In this document: positions 4,396-26,118 of the stretch, piece after piece
Position numbering within the stretch: position 1 is the first letter of the stretch
Layout of the letters: the number at the start of each line of letters is the position of its first letter
Virus record (IMG/VR): IMGVR_UViG_2731957842_000006
Strand: one strand, 5' to 3'
Source: a virus
Taxonomy: Duplodnaviria; Heunggongvirae; Uroviricota; Caudoviricetes
DNA length: 37,265 nucleotides
The notes under the pieces: model-generated
The model's input: only the letters and a program-made list of their open reading frames with translations
What the model was told of the DNA's origin: nothing
Databases searched by the model: none
Translations under genes and position numbers: made by a program

Positions 4396-5601
4396 TTAAC
4401 TTGAACCTGTGATACCACCGTCGAAAAAATAGGAATAGGTATCGCCATAAACCAGGCTTGTGTCTTTTGCCGGAGGAACAATATGGCCATTAATGCCAAT
4501 GCTCACACTGATTGTTGAGATCAACGTCGCATCAACCAACAATCTGACGGAACTGGTAAAAATATCCTGGATTCGCAGCAGATTTATCGGGTGTCCGACT
4601 TCAATAGAATTGATGTAATCAGCAACGTTTTGCTGCACAGCCATAGCAATACCCGCCGGATCAACATAATCATCAGATACAGTGTTCCAGGTGATTAGCA
4701 CCATGACGTTTTGTGATGACGGGATAACGAACGGTACCTGATAAACATCTGGCGAAACGGTTATTGAAACCGTGCGTTTTTCCACTGCCGCACCAGATGG
4801 ATTGCTAACATCGTTGGTCAGTTTCGAAATATCCGGTACAGATTTGTAAATAGCATAAGCCACATCATACGGATCACCGCCACCAACAACCGCAACCCAT
4901 TTCCCCAGCGACGACTGCCGGAAAGAAATCAGGTTTTCTCGCACACCGCTTACTGATTTGAGCATCGCTTTAAAGCAATCCGGTGTTCCCTGCACACCAA
5001 ACATGCCGGACTCCATGACTTCGGCGCGGTAAGATGCCCACGTTTGCGCCTCCTGACCTGGCATCCCTGCGGTAAGGTTCGTGCATTTTACAGGCTGATC
5101 TTTGGGTACCGATGTAATGACCTGCGTTACGGTTCCTTCCGGTACAGCCCATGAGCCTGACGTTGTGGCCACACAGTAGACTGGCTCAGTCTGCCCGCTT
5201 TCCGGCACCACCGTATCGCGGGAAACTGCATACTGGTAGTTGCCGTCACCGACAACAAATCCTTTAGGGATACCAAACCCCGGCAACGCCTCAAACACCA
5301 CGTATACCGCCGTATTTGTACTTAATCCCTTCTGTGCTCCATAAATGTTTCCGAGTTGCATCAGTAACGGAATATTTGCGCCGTATGGGCTTACGGAGTT
5401 AATAAGGTCCACCCGCGCCTGGTCTATTAATGCCAGCGCCCCGACAGCCGTGCTGGCAAGGTCTGTAATAAGCCCCGCCGGAAGGTTGGCTGTATATCCA
5501 GGTACTTTTTCGGCAACTCTGGTGATAAGATTCGCGAGCAAATCATTGGGTGGCGTAGGCTGCGCCCCCGCACTGGTCATAGTAATTGGTATTTCTGACA
5601 T
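4396..5601 (-). CDS. baseplate J-like protein
   Basis: 401-aa ORF; size and position match baseplate J family (Mu gp47 / P2 gpJ-like) ahead of the I-like and fibre genes. Confidence 0.7.
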   Translation of the reverse strand: MSEIPITMTSAGAQPTPPNDLLANLITRVAEKVPGYTANLPAGLITDLASTAVGALALIDQARVDLINSVSPYGANIPLLMQLGNIYGAQKGLSTNTAVYVVFEALPGFGIPKGFVVGDGNYQYAVSRDTVVPESGQTEPVYCVATTSGSWAVPEGTVTQVITSVPKDQPVKCTNLTAGMPGQEAQTWASYRAEVMESGMFGVQGTPDCFKAMLKSVSGVRENLISFRQSSLGKWVAVVGGGDPYDVAYAIYKSVPDISKLTNDVSNPSGAAVEKRTVSITVSPDVYQVPFVIPSSQNVMVLITWNTVSDDYVDPAGIAMAVQQNVADYINSIEVGHPINLLRIQDIFTSSVRLLVDATLISTISVSIGINGHIVPPAKDTSLVYGDTYSYFFDGGITGSS

Positions 5602-5612
5602 ATTTACTCCAT

Positions 5613-5640
5613 TAAAAAACCCGCTTTCGCGGGTTTTTTA
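5613..5640. terminator. bidirectional intrinsic terminator-like hairpin (AACCCGC-TTTC-GCGGGTT flanked by A6 and T6)
   Basis: Perfect 7-bp GC-rich stem with U-tract on both strands, between the inserted gene stop (5642) and the J-like start (5601). Confidence 0.5.
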
Positions 5641-5641
5641 C

Positions 5642-6801
5642 TTATTCAACCTCTTCTAAACTGCTCACTCTGGACCCTCGGCGGAAATTATCATCATTTT
5701 TAACATACTCATATGAATCCAGAATCAAACCAGATATGCGAAGTATATCTTCCGGATTAGTTATATGTATCCTTTTACCATCCGTATCAAGTCGAGCTCG
5801 TCTTATTTCATTCAACTGAACTTCACTAAGCGAAATAGGTAATGTTATAAATGAAGATTTTTTATCATAAAATCTTAACAGCCATCTATTAGTTTTACCA
5901 TTCAATAGTACACCAAAATATGACTCAGTATCTTTATATTCTATATTATCTTCTGTTTGTATGATTTGTTTTACCCTTTCAAATAGTTCCAATTCTTTGG
6001 CTGTGGTTATTATGTTGGGGTTTTCTTCATCAACAATGGCGTTATTAACTTGTGTATCCGTTGCATCATTTTCTTTAGTTTGCTCTACCGGTTGTGTAGA
6101 TAGCCCGGAAACCACCATTGCGCTAACAGCGCGCTCAACGGCCTGTTTAACTAATGGAGTCACGAACTCAAGAAATCTCTGATTAAGTTGTCTCTCAATA
6201 TTTGAACGACTAGCAACATATCGAACAAACTCCAGATCAACTTCACGAAGACTAGAACTGATTGTTTTAGTAAATGAATTCAAATAAACACTTTCTTCAG
6301 CCAGTGTCCGTAAAGCCTCTGGTTTGAATTTATCATAACGAAAACGAAATAATTGTGTAATATCGGAGTGAGTTAGAGAATCCATTCTTATTTTTAAAAA
6401 CGGCGTTGAATCCATTATGTTTTTTGTTTCAAATCCGTAAAAAAACGCCATTCAACACCATTTGTAATGGCTGATATAGTAACTTCCGGTGTTGAATTAA
6501 AATATCTTGATAGCTGTGGGCAGTGATTATCAATTTGTTCTGAAAACGATTTCGCCTCAATGAACATCACAGGAACATCATGACAAAATAAAGCGTAATC
6601 AACCCGTTCATTAGCCTTAACCCCGGGGAAGTCAGCACTATACTCAGCTTTGACTTTTCTTGGATCATACGGAGTAAAACCAAGAATATCTAGTAATGGC
6701 ATAATGAGTGCTTGTTTTGTCGTTTCTTCAGTTGTACAAAACACCCCCATTTTTGCAACATGCTCTGTGTGTATTTTTAACTTATTTGCAAAATTTTCCA
6801 T
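5642..6801 (-). CDS. HsdR-N-like PD-(D/E)xK nuclease-domain protein with about 265-aa uncharacterised C-terminal region; reading frame broken at a homopolymer (ORFs 6415..6801 and 5642..6451)
   Basis: N-terminal 128 aa carry the restriction-endonuclease-like pattern (PLLDILGF ... VDYALF ... VMFIEAKS ... QLSRYF ... ITNGVEWRFF); GGAGGAG Shine-Dalgarno 8 nt before the ATG at 6801; frame changes at A7 6439-6445 (one extra base would fuse both ORFs); roughly 33-35 percent GC by eye versus about 50 percent in flanks. Confidence 0.5.
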
Positions 6802-6829
6802 GCTTGTCTCCTCCATGGTAACAATATGT

Positions 6830-6859
6830 ATTTTGCAAATCCGAAATAATATATGTCAA
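6830..6859 (-). promoter_or_regulatory. sigma70-like promoter of the inserted nuclease-domain gene
   Basis: Minus strand TTGACA (6854-6859), 18-bp spacer, CAAAAT (6830-6835), about 30 nt upstream of the ATG. Confidence 0.35.
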
Positions 6860-6950
6860 TATGCTCCAGCTTAGAAAATTACTCGCCCCCCTAAAATATC
6901 TCTCTACAGCACTCCAAACCAAGGTAAAAGTTTTATCATAAAACTGTGAT

Positions 6951-7298
6951 TCATACCGGCACCTGCGTCCGGTAACTGGTCCCATTAAAAAACACAACAT
7001 CGATGTTATAGGTGGGGTTATCTGCTCCATCTACCTTTGAAATTGCCAGTGATGCAAAATACCCAGCAAACTGTTGCTGAACCATGTTCACATAGTAGTC
7101 TGGGTAAATCTGCTGCACGATGCACTGCTGTGCAGGAATACCGTAATTCGCGTAAAACGGCGACTCCCCCAATCCCAGCTTTAACGTCTGAATGAGCGTC
7201 GTCAGCCAGCCGTAGGAGAAATCACCGTTGGCGTCAGATTCTACTGCAACCCATTTTTTGTTGCCGTTCGCGTCGGTGACGCGGCCCCATGTTCTCAT
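6951..7298 (-). CDS. putative baseplate component (115 aa)
   Basis: ORF in the baseplate block between the spike-like gene and the J-like gene; family not assignable by eye. Confidence 0.4.
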   Translation of the reverse strand: MRTWGRVTDANGNKKWVAVESDANGDFSYGWLTTLIQTLKLGLGESPFYANYGIPAQQCIVQQIYPDYYVNMVQQQFAGYFASLAISKVDGADNPTYNIDVVFFNGTSYRTQVPV

Positions 7299-7498
7299 CG
7301 TGCCCCCATCACTTTAACTAACTCTGTCAGTACTGGTGAAAAGGCAAATGCTAAAGCTACGAGTGCAGCGGTGTAATACATGCGTCGTAAGGTATTGCTT
7401 TTTGCCACTAATTTTAAGGCTTTCACAATCCAGTCTCCTCCGCTAAAATTAATCACGGAAGACCTCCAAACATACGTAATCATCCCTTGCGTATTCAA
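7295..7498 (-). CDS. small hypothetical protein (67 aa or shorter), hydrophobic C-terminal half
   Basis: ORF whose stop overlaps the downstream start; weak support only. Confidence 0.25.
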   Translation of the reverse strand: MNTQGMITYVWRSSVINFSGGDWIVKALKLVAKSNTLRRMYYTAALVALAFAFSPVLTELVKVMGAR

Positions 7499-7511
7499 GG
7501 TGAGAAACAGA

Positions 7512-17117: not shown

Positions 17118-17309
17118 TTATGCGTATTCCCGGCGTTTGTCCGGCGACTCCTCCACCAGCTCCTGCCATGTCGCGGTAAATTCACGTCGCCACTGGTAAA
17201 ACGTGGTTTTATAGTCATCAGTTATGATGTCCGGGTAATCATTTTTCAGCGACTGATAAAATTCCTCGTTCCAGGCGATGTACTGCACCAGGCGTTCGAA
17301 ATAATCCAT
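17118..17309 (-). CDS. small hypothetical protein (63 aa)
   Basis: ATG overlaps the terminase TGA (TGATG coupling); no similarity to a terminase nuclease domain. Confidence 0.3.
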   Translation of the reverse strand: MDYFERLVQYIAWNEEFYQSLKNDYPDIITDDYKTTFYQWRREFTATWQELVEESPDKRREYA

Positions 17310-18043
17310 CACAGGTTCAATCTGCTGGCGTACACCATCGATAACGCGTCTTTGGACCAGTCCACGAACTCGGCAAGATATTCCTGCTGCCAAACGCGCG
17401 GATCGGATTTCTTCTCCGTTTCCTCCAGTTCTTCTTTCGGAATGTACGGATTCGATGAAGTTGGCGCATGGTGCATGACAAATCCCAGGGATTCATCGTG
17501 GCATATCGCGTAGAAAAAATTGCTCTCGTCGATACCGTTTGGTGTGGAAAATACCCACGCACAGCCACGGTAATCAACAAGCGTCGGGCGTATAGCGCGG
17601 GGCCAGATTTCCTCGAGCATTTCCGGCGATTTAGTGAATGCGGCCTCATCAATCAGCACAGCGTGATATTTACGCCCACGCCCGGCCAGTTTGTTATTGT
17701 CCGTTACCCAAAAGTCGATGCGCCCCCCATTACGGAGAATAATGCGCTTTTCATTTTTTGACTGGCTGAGGATCAGCGGTTGCAGAACGGCGCTAATTTC
17801 ATCCCAGATTTCCTGGTACTGTCGGTATTGTGCGGTAAAAATCCCCACCCTACCCGCGATAAGCTGCCCGGTGGTAGGAACGGCAAATTTCCGCGTCGCG
17901 AAACTGGTAGCGATGTTCACCAGCATCACCGTTTTACCCCAGCGACGACCACAGCATACCGCGTGGAAGCGTTCCTCTATTGCCGCCGTCCATGCAGCTA
18001 TTTGCCCCTCATGAGGTTTTGGGAGGTAGATTTCAATCGACAT
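17309..18043 (-). CDS. terminase large subunit, N-terminal ATPase domain only (244 aa; truncated)
   Basis: Walker A GRRWGKT and Walker B-like VLIDEAAF with STPNG motif; ORF ends after about 244 aa and no nuclease domain, portal or capsid genes follow. Confidence 0.6.
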   Translation of the reverse strand: MSIEIYLPKPHEGQIAAWTAAIEERFHAVCCGRRWGKTVMLVNIATSFATRKFAVPTTGQLIAGRVGIFTAQYRQYQEIWDEISAVLQPLILSQSKNEKRIILRNGGRIDFWVTDNNKLAGRGRKYHAVLIDEAAFTKSPEMLEEIWPRAIRPTLVDYRGCAWVFSTPNGIDESNFFYAICHDESLGFVMHHAPTSSNPYIPKEELEETEKKSDPRVWQQEYLAEFVDWSKDALSMVYASRLNL

Positions 18044-23112: not shown

Positions 23113-23187
<75 letters not shown>

Positions 23188-23474
23188 ATACTGTGCTGGC
23201 CCCCGGAATAACACGAATTACCAAGAGAGCCCGCACTGGTCTTTCCGGTGGCAAACAGCACCCCTGCTAACATAAAAGATAAACACCTTCCAGACGCAAA
23301 AATACTAACAACTGTTTTTCAGATATCCAAAATATATTTGGTTTTTATTTTTGAAAATATGTATACATATGTATCATAAATATACAAGCCATATCATAAC
23401 CGAATTAAAAATCTTTAGTTATCTCTTTTGCCGTCTGATCACCACCCACCGGCAGCTGAGAATTCCGGCACACA

Positions 23475-23537
23475 ATGAAAAAGGCCCGCCAGGGCGAGCC
23501 ATAAAAACTGAATAAAAAAACCGCCCGGGGCGGCGGC
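23475..23537 (-). repeat. copy B of the roughly 66-bp repeat with terminator hairpin (CCGCC-CGG-GGCGG plus T-run, 23512-23536)
   Basis: Direct repeat of 22795-22860 at high identity; located downstream of the tRNA-like pseudogene. Confidence 0.6.
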
Positions 23538-23902
23538 TAAAACGATAAAAGGACACAATATTATAATGATTATTGGGTTTGGGGCATCGGGTGCCTCCCG
23601 AAGTATTCCACTTTACGTGGATACTGTGGTTTCCCGCTAAACCGACTCTATAAACCACCCTCGCACTGAGGAACGCCCCAATTCATGTTTTCCGACACAG
23701 AGATGGCGCATCACTGGTTACTCCACGCTAAATCCTGCTTCCTTTCGTGGGCAATGCGCCATTTCTGTGTCATAAAAAATACAGCACTGAGTCTGTAACC
23801 GATCTCCATTACAGAATGAGGGACGATAAAGGTATTAAAGAGATCTGTTCCTCACGAAAACCGCCAGTGCTGTAAAAACTTGTCCAAAAAACAATGAAGT
23901 TG

Positions 23903-23976
23903 CGGAGAACAGGAATCGAACCGGCATTACCAACCTAAGGCTGATGTAATAACCACTATACGATACCTGCATATAG
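23903..23976 (-). pseudogene. degenerate tRNA-Gly-like sequence (acceptor and anticodon stems do not pair)
   Basis: Shares D-arm and T-loop (GGTTCGATTCC) with the tRNA at 23113-23187 but the anticodon arm is rearranged and acceptor halves are not complementary. Confidence 0.3.
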
Positions 23977-24491
23977 AGCAGGCCTCCGTAACCACAATAA
24001 TGACACTGATACCGATAACAGCCCTTCATTATGATTAAACGGATGCCAGCAATGACCCGCAAGACAGCGGGTAACACCCCTGTGAACAGAAACTTGCTGC
24101 CTTTCGGGTCGAGAGTAATATTACCGATAATTTATATGACATCAAAAACTAATTAGTTTTCATATTTAAACATATGTATAAATATGTATCAGACGCATAC
24201 AATTTATGTTATTTCATCCAGACTTCTGATTTCTCACAGGAAATTGCGAAAAAAAACAACATAAAAATGAACAAATTGGGAGTACGCTAACTCCGTTGTC
24301 GCAATAAATCACAGTAAGCTCTTCAGAAATAACAGTTCACAAGACTTACATCAACAGTAGTTTTTGTAATGATTAATGTTAACTGTAGCGTTGAAAAGAA
24401 AAGTTTTGACGAAATATGGTGAACTAACAGAGCCTAACGAATAGCCCTATTACGCCGAGCTAATAGCGCTGCCAGCTAAACTTGCATGGAA

Positions 24492-24568
24492 TGGTCCGCC
24501 ACCGAGGACTCGAACCTCGCACAATCAACTTAGAAGGTTGATGCTCTATCCCGATGAGCTAGTGGCGG
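24492..24568 (-). tRNA. tRNA-Arg (anticodon UCU, reads AGA)
   Basis: Hand-folded 77-nt cloverleaf: acceptor CCGCCAC/GTGGCGG, anticodon arm TCAAC-CTTCTAA-GTTGA, T-arm CGAGG-TTCGAGT-CCTCG, encoded CCA. Confidence 0.85.
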
Positions 24569-24570
24569 AA

Positions 24571-24646
24571 TGGTGGCCCTTGCTGGATTTGAACCAGCGA
24601 CCTGGCGATTATGAGTCGCTCGCTCTCACCACTGAGCTAAAGGGCC
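24571..24646 (-). tRNA. tRNA with CAU anticodon, Ile2 (lysidine-type, reads AUA)-like; could alternatively be Met
   Basis: 76-nt cloverleaf GGCCCTT ... anticodon loop CTCATAA ... T-arm GCTGG-TTCAAAT-CCAGC ... AAGGGCC-A-CCA; resembles ileX-type tRNAs; 2 nt from the tRNA-Arg. Confidence 0.8.
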
Positions 24647-25870: not shown

Positions 25871-26118
25871 CTGGTGAAGTTCATGCGATTAATTCGCCAC
25901 GCGATACAGCTTTGCGAAGCGTATCGGAATTGAAGCAGTTTATGCGTAAGAAATCAAGCCATTTTTTGAGCAAATGATTCTCGCATGGGAATGTATAGCG
26001 CACACTCAGCAACAGCCAACCAATTAGCAATTCGCTTTGACCAGTTGTATATGCGCCATTGCTGTCTCCAATGGCGCTGTAGGTTGCCAGTTGTTCAGGC
26101 TGGCTTACGAATTATAAC

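Follow-up and report, generated by a model that had tools for sequence, protein, structure and literature searches.

The stretch of DNA analysed here, referred to as the window, comprises 37,265 nucleotides of a Caudoviricetes record (IMG/VR IMGVR_UViG_2731957842_000006) and contains a Rac-type lambdoid prophage of Escherichia coli. Its tail module includes a 1.3 kb cargo cassette on the minus strand, located between the start of a gene coding for a 401 residue baseplate J protein (4396–5601) and the stop of a gene coding for a 115 residue protein (6951–7298). The cassette encodes a nuclease of the family catalogued as PHROG 4225, and in the window the gene is split by a 1 bp deletion into two open reading frames (ORFs) in different frames. 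The features of the cassette are as follows, with elements of the minus strand given from high to low coordinate where they are read in the direction of transcription.

5610–6940, minus strand: the whole cargo cassette, from the terminator through the nuclease gene, its ribosome-binding site and the promoter to ~80 nt of spacer upstream, delimited by loss of homology and by base composition
5613–5640, both strands: bidirectional intrinsic terminator hairpin, A6-CCCGC-GAAA-GCGGG-U6, a 12 bp perfect inverted repeat
5642–6415, minus strand: ORF2, 257 residues, in a different frame from ORF1, equivalent to residues 130–386 of the intact protein
5678–6031, minus strand: YdhG/YjbR-like C-terminal domain (residues 258–375), in ORF2
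6032–6097, minus strand: acidic low-confidence linker, in ORF2
6098–6415, minus strand: helical connector, in ORF2
6413–6417, minus strand: TAATG stop/start overlap, with the ORF1 stop TAA at 6417–6415 and the ORF2 ATG at 6415–6413
6415–6801, minus strand: ORF1, 128 residues, an HsdR-N/RecB-type PD-(D/E)xK nuclease domain, shortened by the frameshift
6420–6425, minus strand: A6 tract, read as T6 on the plus strand, where the 1 bp deletion lies; the intact A7 form reads CAA AAA AAC, coding for Q-K-N
6600–6598, 6558–6556, 6552–6550, 6516–6514 and 6504–6502, minus strand: catalytic codons D68, E82, K84, Q96 and Y100, respectively
6808–6814, minus strand: Shine-Dalgarno GGAGGAG, 6 nt 5' of the ATG at 6801, as read from the sequence
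6830–6859, minus strand: sigma-70-like promoter, with -35 TTGACA at 6859–6854, an 18 nt spacer and -10 CAAAAT at 6835–6830

The cassette is distinct in base composition and includes putative expression signals of its own. The GC (guanine plus cytosine) content of positions 5611–6950 is 0.354, lower than in the remainder of the tail module (0.483) or in the entire window (0.474), and is the minimum among all 1340 bp segments of the 37 kb (mean 0.474, standard deviation 0.036). The promoter-like site, identified by consensus match only, agrees at 10 of 12 positions and is the top-scoring site of its kind between 5400 and 7400. The Shine-Dalgarno sequence precedes the MENF start that RefSeq and the gene callers assign to the protein; initiation at an upstream ATG would extend ORF1 from 128 to 133 residues. 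The terminator forms the stem-loop AAAAAACCCGC-GAAA-GCGGGUUUUUU with a folding free energy of -17.4 kcal/mol (z -4.54), and none of 200 shuffled sequences is equally stable. Since A/U runs flank the hairpin on both sides, it can act in either direction. An automatic terminator scan overlooked the hairpin, having counted the A-U pairs as part of the stem, and an Rfam scan of 5400–7400 gave nothing above threshold, with sub-threshold matches only, all on this hairpin. The AT-rich insert in the baseplate operon, its TTGACA promoter, its strong Shine-Dalgarno and its bidirectional terminator had all been proposed in an initial annotation made from the sequence alone, and the present data bear these proposals out. 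Two further repeats are present in the same region. A perfect 11 nt inverted repeat, ATTTGCAAAAT / ATTTTGCAAAT, lies at 6784–6794 and 6830–6840, with one arm covering the -10 element and the other covering nuclease codons 3–6, and could be a candidate repressor operator pair. A 17 bp palindrome, AGTTTTAT-C-ATAAAACT, at 6929–6945 crosses the right boundary of the cassette, where homology resumes at 6940, and may mark a site of recombination or exchange, or weakly terminate transcription of the upstream 115 residue gene.

Comparisons with related prophages demonstrate that the locus is a variable slot. A megablast search of window positions 5000–7500 against 5,426 complete E. coli genomes identified the flanks in 100 genomes and the cassette part in just 25 of these. 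In relatives with other cargo, homology to the window ends at 5609/5621 and restarts at 6940. Among the genomes listed, the alternative cargoes are an LprI-family gene with an AntA/AntB antirepressor, a hypothetical gene with Ant, or a hypothetical gene with an AntA/AntB antirepressor, the last of these in E. coli W and KO11FL among others. Promoter, gene and terminator are thus swapped as one unit, which makes the cassette a classical phage moron: the slot is filled differently in relatives, the insert includes a promoter-like site and a terminator, and its composition is unlike that of the flanks. That the cassette is a moron bearing a member of the PHROG 4225 type nuclease family is almost certain. 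The insert is restricted to a quarter of the related tail modules rather than common to all of them, and its product belongs to an endonuclease family rather than a structural baseplate family, so that neither of the two outcomes that the initial annotation had named as refuting its reading was observed.

Two other observations concern this tail module. A second small variable spot, in which homology to relatives is broken, is located at 7299–7409 between the 115 residue gene and a gene coding for a 237 residue baseplate protein, and some relatives have an ORF of 43–53 residues there. The record PP818812.1 (‘Actinobacillus phage vB_Apl-pPE4’) is ~95% identical in DNA sequence to the E. coli Rac-type tail module and contains hypothetical plus antirepressor cargo in the same slot; the host given, Actinobacillus pleuropneumoniae, looks questionable, or else an E. 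coli prophage may be the source of the record.

The product of the intact gene is a nuclease of 386 residues. It is encoded by a single ORF with an A7 tract in 25/25 of the complete E. coli genomes that carry the insert, and RefSeq lists it, as WP_000426902.1 and close variants, under the name ‘type I restriction endonuclease’. The fused protein of the window aligns to the PHROG 4225 ‘endonuclease’ profile over residues 1–370 and profile positions 1–357 of 357 (E = 2.2e-145, 485 bits), a full-length match from which the window copy differs by its frameshift alone. The sole Pfam families found are HSDR_N (48.6–53 bits, threshold 25.1) and HSDR_N_2 (36–38 bits, threshold 25), at residues 25–128, and this domain is present in 60 of 60 diverse relatives. 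An alignment of these 60 members shows that D68, Y69, K84 and Y100 are invariant and that E82 and Q96 are kept in at least 90%; D68, E82-x-K84 and Q96xxxY100 constitute the D / ExK / QxxxY set of HsdR/RecB-type nucleases. The predicted HsdR-N-type PD-(D/E)xK N-terminus, with its VDYALF and IEAK segments in ORF1, is therefore genuine. Following the helical connector and the flexible linker, the C-terminal domain is small, conserved, alpha/beta and similar to YdhG, YjbR and the MotA C-terminal domain. No helicase, methyltransferase or target-recognition domain is present in the protein, and Pfam in particular showed no helicase.

The initial annotation had regarded the C-terminal region as unrecognised and the domain combination as one without a name. 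Neither view can be retained, as the entire fused protein matches PHROG 4225 from end to end, and members of the family are named not only in PHROG and RefSeq but also as ‘predicted type IV restriction endonuclease’ (one Joint Genome Institute fragment), DUF450 protein and ‘prophage Lp2 protein 6’. The family is thus already catalogued and is not new. Matches to NCBIfam are far below threshold (PRK11448, 18.9 bits against a cut-off of 729), and PADLOC models recognise relatives only weakly and only through the nuclease domain (type IIG, Cas4 and mad2 models). A profile search for other architectures containing the C-terminal domain, with candidates restricted to sequences sharing an exact 5-mer, returned family fragments only.

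Among the closest known proteins is the nuclease domain of type I HsdR (PF04313/PF13588; EcoR124I HsdR, 2w00, and the HsdR fragment 3h1t). However, HsdR proteins are ~1000 residues in length, and the 386 residue family protein has neither the superfamily 2 translocase nor the C-terminal domain that binds the methylase core. No hsdM or hsdS gene lies nearby, as the neighbours in the window are baseplate genes. Lack of a motor, short length and lack of hsdMS neighbours mark the RefSeq name as a domain-level misnomer. Type IIG/IIL enzymes (BpuSI, 3s1s; DrdV, 7lo5) have a similar N-terminal nuclease and helical connector, but the family does not contain their methyltransferase and target-recognition domains and has a 110 residue YdhG/YjbR-like domain in their place.

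The predicted homopolymer frame break is real in the window sequence: the tract is A6, and it is A7 in the 25 complete E. coli genomes. This single base is also the sole difference between window positions 5000–7500 and the prophage of strain RM11911 (NZ_CP044313.1, with the intact gene at 519329–520489). In the A6 allele the nuclease domain ends at residue 128, and the deletion creates the TAATG overlap, in which the ATG of ORF2 is the conserved Met130 codon; an ATG further upstream would give ORF2 269 residues. The exact 128 residue product is called on 11 independent contigs, and the six A6 contigs shown (five Logan read-set assemblies and one from NCBI) all contain genes of 128 and 257 residues with a 1 nt overlap. 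According to a table of variable sites, at least three haplotypes carry the A6 allele, each paired with an otherwise identical A7 twin: the window and contig L021 with L001, L018/L020/L022 with L026/L028, and L019 with L030. Contigs L023 and L024 form a further near-identical pair in the table. As the broken alleles are free of secondary lesions, the break has arisen repeatedly and recently. By parting the nuclease domain (128 residues) from the remainder of the protein (257 residues), the deletion most probably leaves the window copy off.

Two candidate explanations of the split gene were rejected. A programmed -1 ribosomal frameshift at the T7 run (CG-U-UUU-UUU-A, 6439–6445) does not fit the position of the indel, which is in the A-run 14 nt downstream. 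A natural division of the family into two genes was suggested by proteins of 223–230 residues that start at the conserved Met; in these cases the nuclease domain is encoded upstream of the Met in the same frame, and a different frameshift, close to the N-terminus, has broken the gene. Copies broken independently, by frameshift or truncation, occur in a Firmicutes prophage (L115–L117, P0280), in Parvicella tangerina (L113, P0311) and in E. coli (P0390), and in broken copies gene callers report a ‘protein’ of 223–230 residues from the conserved Met that mimics a separate family.

The window copy itself may simply be a decaying pseudogene in a defective prophage, inactivated by the frameshift and part of a cassette that no longer has any role in this genome. 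This is probably the case, and the state of the surrounding prophage is consistent with it. The relative in strain RM11911 is 99.98% identical to the window prophage and contains intR, xisR, ralR, recET, kilR, ydaT, ydaV and hokD ahead of its lysis, terminase, head, tail and baseplate genes. Compared with this relative, the window is without ~5.6 kb, in two blocks around a kept 217 bp piece (window 17128–17343), that cover the 3' part of the terminase large subunit gene, a portal gene that bears the annotation ‘Acb1 family’, DUF2213 and genes for the head. It is also without ~1.3 kb at 26036–26038 that codes for DUF1367, DUF1364 and DUF1133, the last of which is possibly a Q-antiterminator-like protein. 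With this DNA missing, the window prophage is probably defective. In addition, a homopolymer indel affects the 3' end of the baseplate J gene, and the truncated or frameshifted alleles P0390, P0280 and P0311 show that loss is not confined to the 1 bp deletion seen here. Against complete decay, the broken alleles are identical to their intact twins outside the tract, so that each break must be very recent or reversible, and the TAATG overlap could still let both halves be made. Moreover, the pseudogene account concerns the window copy alone, and is compatible with a defensive role for the family.

Two side observations concern the contents of this prophage group. Three minus-strand tRNA genes at 23115–24646 (Gly-TCC, Arg-TCT and a CAT-anticodon tRNA, Ile according to RefSeq) sit in a second stretch of low GC content (<0.40); in the direction of transcription they precede the lysis genes, as in other lambdoid prophages. 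The related contig L020, which carries the same broken nuclease allele, encodes at 831–1604 a KilA-N plus BstA_C protein of a BstA-like abortive-infection family. With both a nuclease and a BstA-like gene on this contig, prophages of this group can carry several defence-type morons.

The frame break might instead be a homopolymer error of sequencing or assembly in a gene that is really intact. Over 31.7 kb, the window and RM11911 differ by seven single-base indels, about as numerous as the substitutions, and 7/7 are in homopolymer runs (in the window at 4428, 6420–6425, ~16098, ~22840, ~24260 and ~29440). The indel at ~4428 reduces the baseplate J protein to 401 residues from the 408 present in all relatives, and a tail gene of RM11911 is itself annotated as ‘frameshifted’ at a T5/T6 site. 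Either assembly may carry homopolymer errors, and the uniform A7 of the 25 complete genomes carrying the insert points the same way. However, recovery of the same 128 residue product on 11 independent contigs makes an error less likely. The A6 contigs have few other homopolymer indels relative to RM11911, one of them in the gene that RefSeq marks as frameshifted in that strain, and the T7 run 14 nt away is never affected. An artefact is therefore an unlikely source of the break.

A third account treats the A7 tract as a contingency switch, in which phase variation toggles a costly nuclease between A7 (on) and A6 (off). It draws on the A6 and A7 twins found on at least three otherwise identical haplotype pairs and on the presence of A7 at the equivalent codons in 33 of 80 species-level homologues. 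However, these 33 loci are phylogenetically related, and the run is explained by Q/E-K-N codons in an AT-rich gene, so that selection for a slippery tract is not demonstrated. A7 is also short for a classical phase-variable tract, and the family suffers inactivating lesions of other types, as expected of ordinary recurrent loss. Such a switch is quite improbable.

The nature of the gene is further illuminated by the distribution of its family. A word-indexed protein search identified 1356 homologues, mostly of 380–390 residues, across Enterobacterales at 62–99% identity, and an exhaustive search identified 292 representative clusters (50% identity) at E ≤ 1e-30. With tblastn the gene was found in 19 phage records, mostly of temperate phages or induced prophages, from at least five phyla; their hosts are Klebsiella, Clostridium, Enterococcus, Streptococcus, Lacticaseibacillus, Porphyromonas, Corynebacterium, Pseudomonas and Fusobacterium. 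Klebsiella phage KpF5 carries the gene immediately downstream of the prophage repressor and on the same strand; in Streptococcus pneumoniae phage IPP25 it is between the repressor and the integrase, in a Clostridium phage it follows helix-turn-helix (HTH) regulators, and in a Porphyromonas phage it adjoins HicAB. A Citrobacter koseri prophage remnant between purB and phoPQ has lost most lytic genes and has kept a cI-like gene and the nuclease gene, 22 nt apart. In Gilliamella the nuclease gene stands alone on the chromosome, and a second E. coli homologue (H83) is 78% identical across the coding sequence only, with unmatched flanks.

Immediate neighbours were surveyed at 80 species-level loci found from a closer alignment of the family. 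The upstream neighbour is on the same strand at 66/80 loci and is an HTH_3 plus Peptidase_S24 repressor at 19–20 of the 80. Downstream neighbours include P22-type antirepressors, Bro-N, the N antiterminator (two loci), DinI, PIN and HigB, together with a small number of defence proteins, known or candidate (PD-Lambda-2, PDC-M18A, PDC-M53A and a HEPN protein). Neither a methyltransferase nor a recurring partner was found among the immediate-neighbour families at the 80 loci. The family is thus a one-gene accessory unit, and its commonest home is the repressor-linked slot, a placement characteristic of genes expressed in lysogens.

The repressor-linked slot is the one that phage lambda uses for rexAB, and both lambda rexAB and bstA of Salmonella phage BTP1 are repressor-linked prophage defence genes. 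Similar to these, the family gene follows cI directly, in the same orientation, at 19–20 of the 80 loci, and at two loci the next gene is the N antiterminator. Unlike them, the window gene is in the tail operon with its own promoter-like site, away from the immunity region, and the proteins are unrelated. The absence of a methyltransferase, helicase or conserved partner gives the family a likeness to type IV or stand-alone restriction nucleases, which share with it the trait of a nuclease without a cognate methyltransferase; the ‘predicted type IV’ name given to one relative voices a similar conjecture. A single-gene HsdR-like system carried on phage-inducible chromosomal islands (PICIs), reported to be anti-phage by Fillol-Salom et al. 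in 2022 and listed as FS_HsdR_like in DefenseFinder, is similar by name and may be related.

These comparisons somewhat favor the explanation that the cassette is a horizontally acquired moron in a baseplate slot, whose intact 386 residue single-chain nuclease guards the lysogen. According to this model, the cassette's own promoter would drive transcription of the nuclease in the lysogen, and the bidirectional terminator would shield baseplate J from cassette transcription and, during lysogeny, insulate the cassette from the late operon. Recognition of a nucleic-acid feature or some other cue of foreign DNA may fall to the C-terminal domain, and the motor-less nuclease would then cut the recognised DNA, which would protect the lysogen against superinfection by phages and against other mobile DNA. 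A nuclease that is specifically modification-dependent is a doubtful refinement of the model.

Several observations weigh against a defensive role. The assignment of the family to defence against phages or other mobile DNA, which on balance is the favored one, derives from genomic position. A search of PADLOC-DB 2.0.0 with the E. coli protein gave no match at E ≤ 1, and the literature searched contained no functional study of any family member, only incidental mentions of annotation names. The promoter is a consensus match, the window copy is frameshifted and may do nothing here whatever the family does, and the recurrent broken relatives in other lineages fit a costly or dispensable gene equally as well as a defence gene. 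The initial annotation's view of the cassette as anti-phage defence cargo is consequently sustained in part: the autonomous moron in a variable slot is substantiated, and the defensive function is a suggestion from context for a copy that is most likely inactive.

Alternatively, the nuclease could serve the phage's own DNA metabolism (recombination, replication or degradation of host DNA) rather than defence. However, the gene sits within the tail operon with a promoter-like site and terminator of its own, 75 of 100 otherwise similar prophages do not have it, a remnant stripped of lytic genes keeps it together with cI, and it is also found as a lone chromosomal gene, all of which make this role very unlikely. 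Least probable of all is a homing-type role, in which a selfish, free-standing endonuclease would cleave tail modules that lack the cassette and so spread it: the gene is free-standing, AT-rich and patchy, has its own promoter-like site and lies exactly between two conserved phage genes, but the slot holds unrelated cargo (Ant, LprI, hypothetical) in most relatives, rather than being empty, and is thus a general exchange point, the family is found in many unrelated settings (after cI, close to integrase, next to toxin-antitoxin genes or alone on the chromosome), and homologue H83 resembles the window gene in its coding sequence and not in its flanks.

A bolder form of the defence model may be considered. 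The family could represent an undescribed single-protein anti-phage or anti-plasmid nuclease, often located in the ‘rex’ slot of temperate phages of several phyla, in which the C-terminal domain discriminates self from non-self and, in the enterobacterial members, the A7 tract at the domain boundary functions as an on/off switch that possibly leaves a translationally coupled two-piece enzyme. This proposal is speculative, and in its full form rather unlikely to hold.

The window itself is ordinary, with a known family, a known type of slot and an inactivated state; what it yields is a testable single-gene candidate and a documented case of recurrent homopolymer inactivation. The recurrent A7 to A6 break is a warning that presence of the gene does not mean that it is functional, and gene callers split the broken form into two unrelated-looking ‘genes’. 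If the intact protein is shown to restrict phages or plasmids, the common label ‘type I restriction endonuclease’, with its mistaken suggestion of three subunits, would be corrected. The protein would then be a very compact defence nuclease of 386 residues with no motor and no partner, one that hundreds of prophages in gut, oral and plant-associated bacteria already encode and that PADLOC-DB 2.0.0, the one defence catalogue tested, does not contain.

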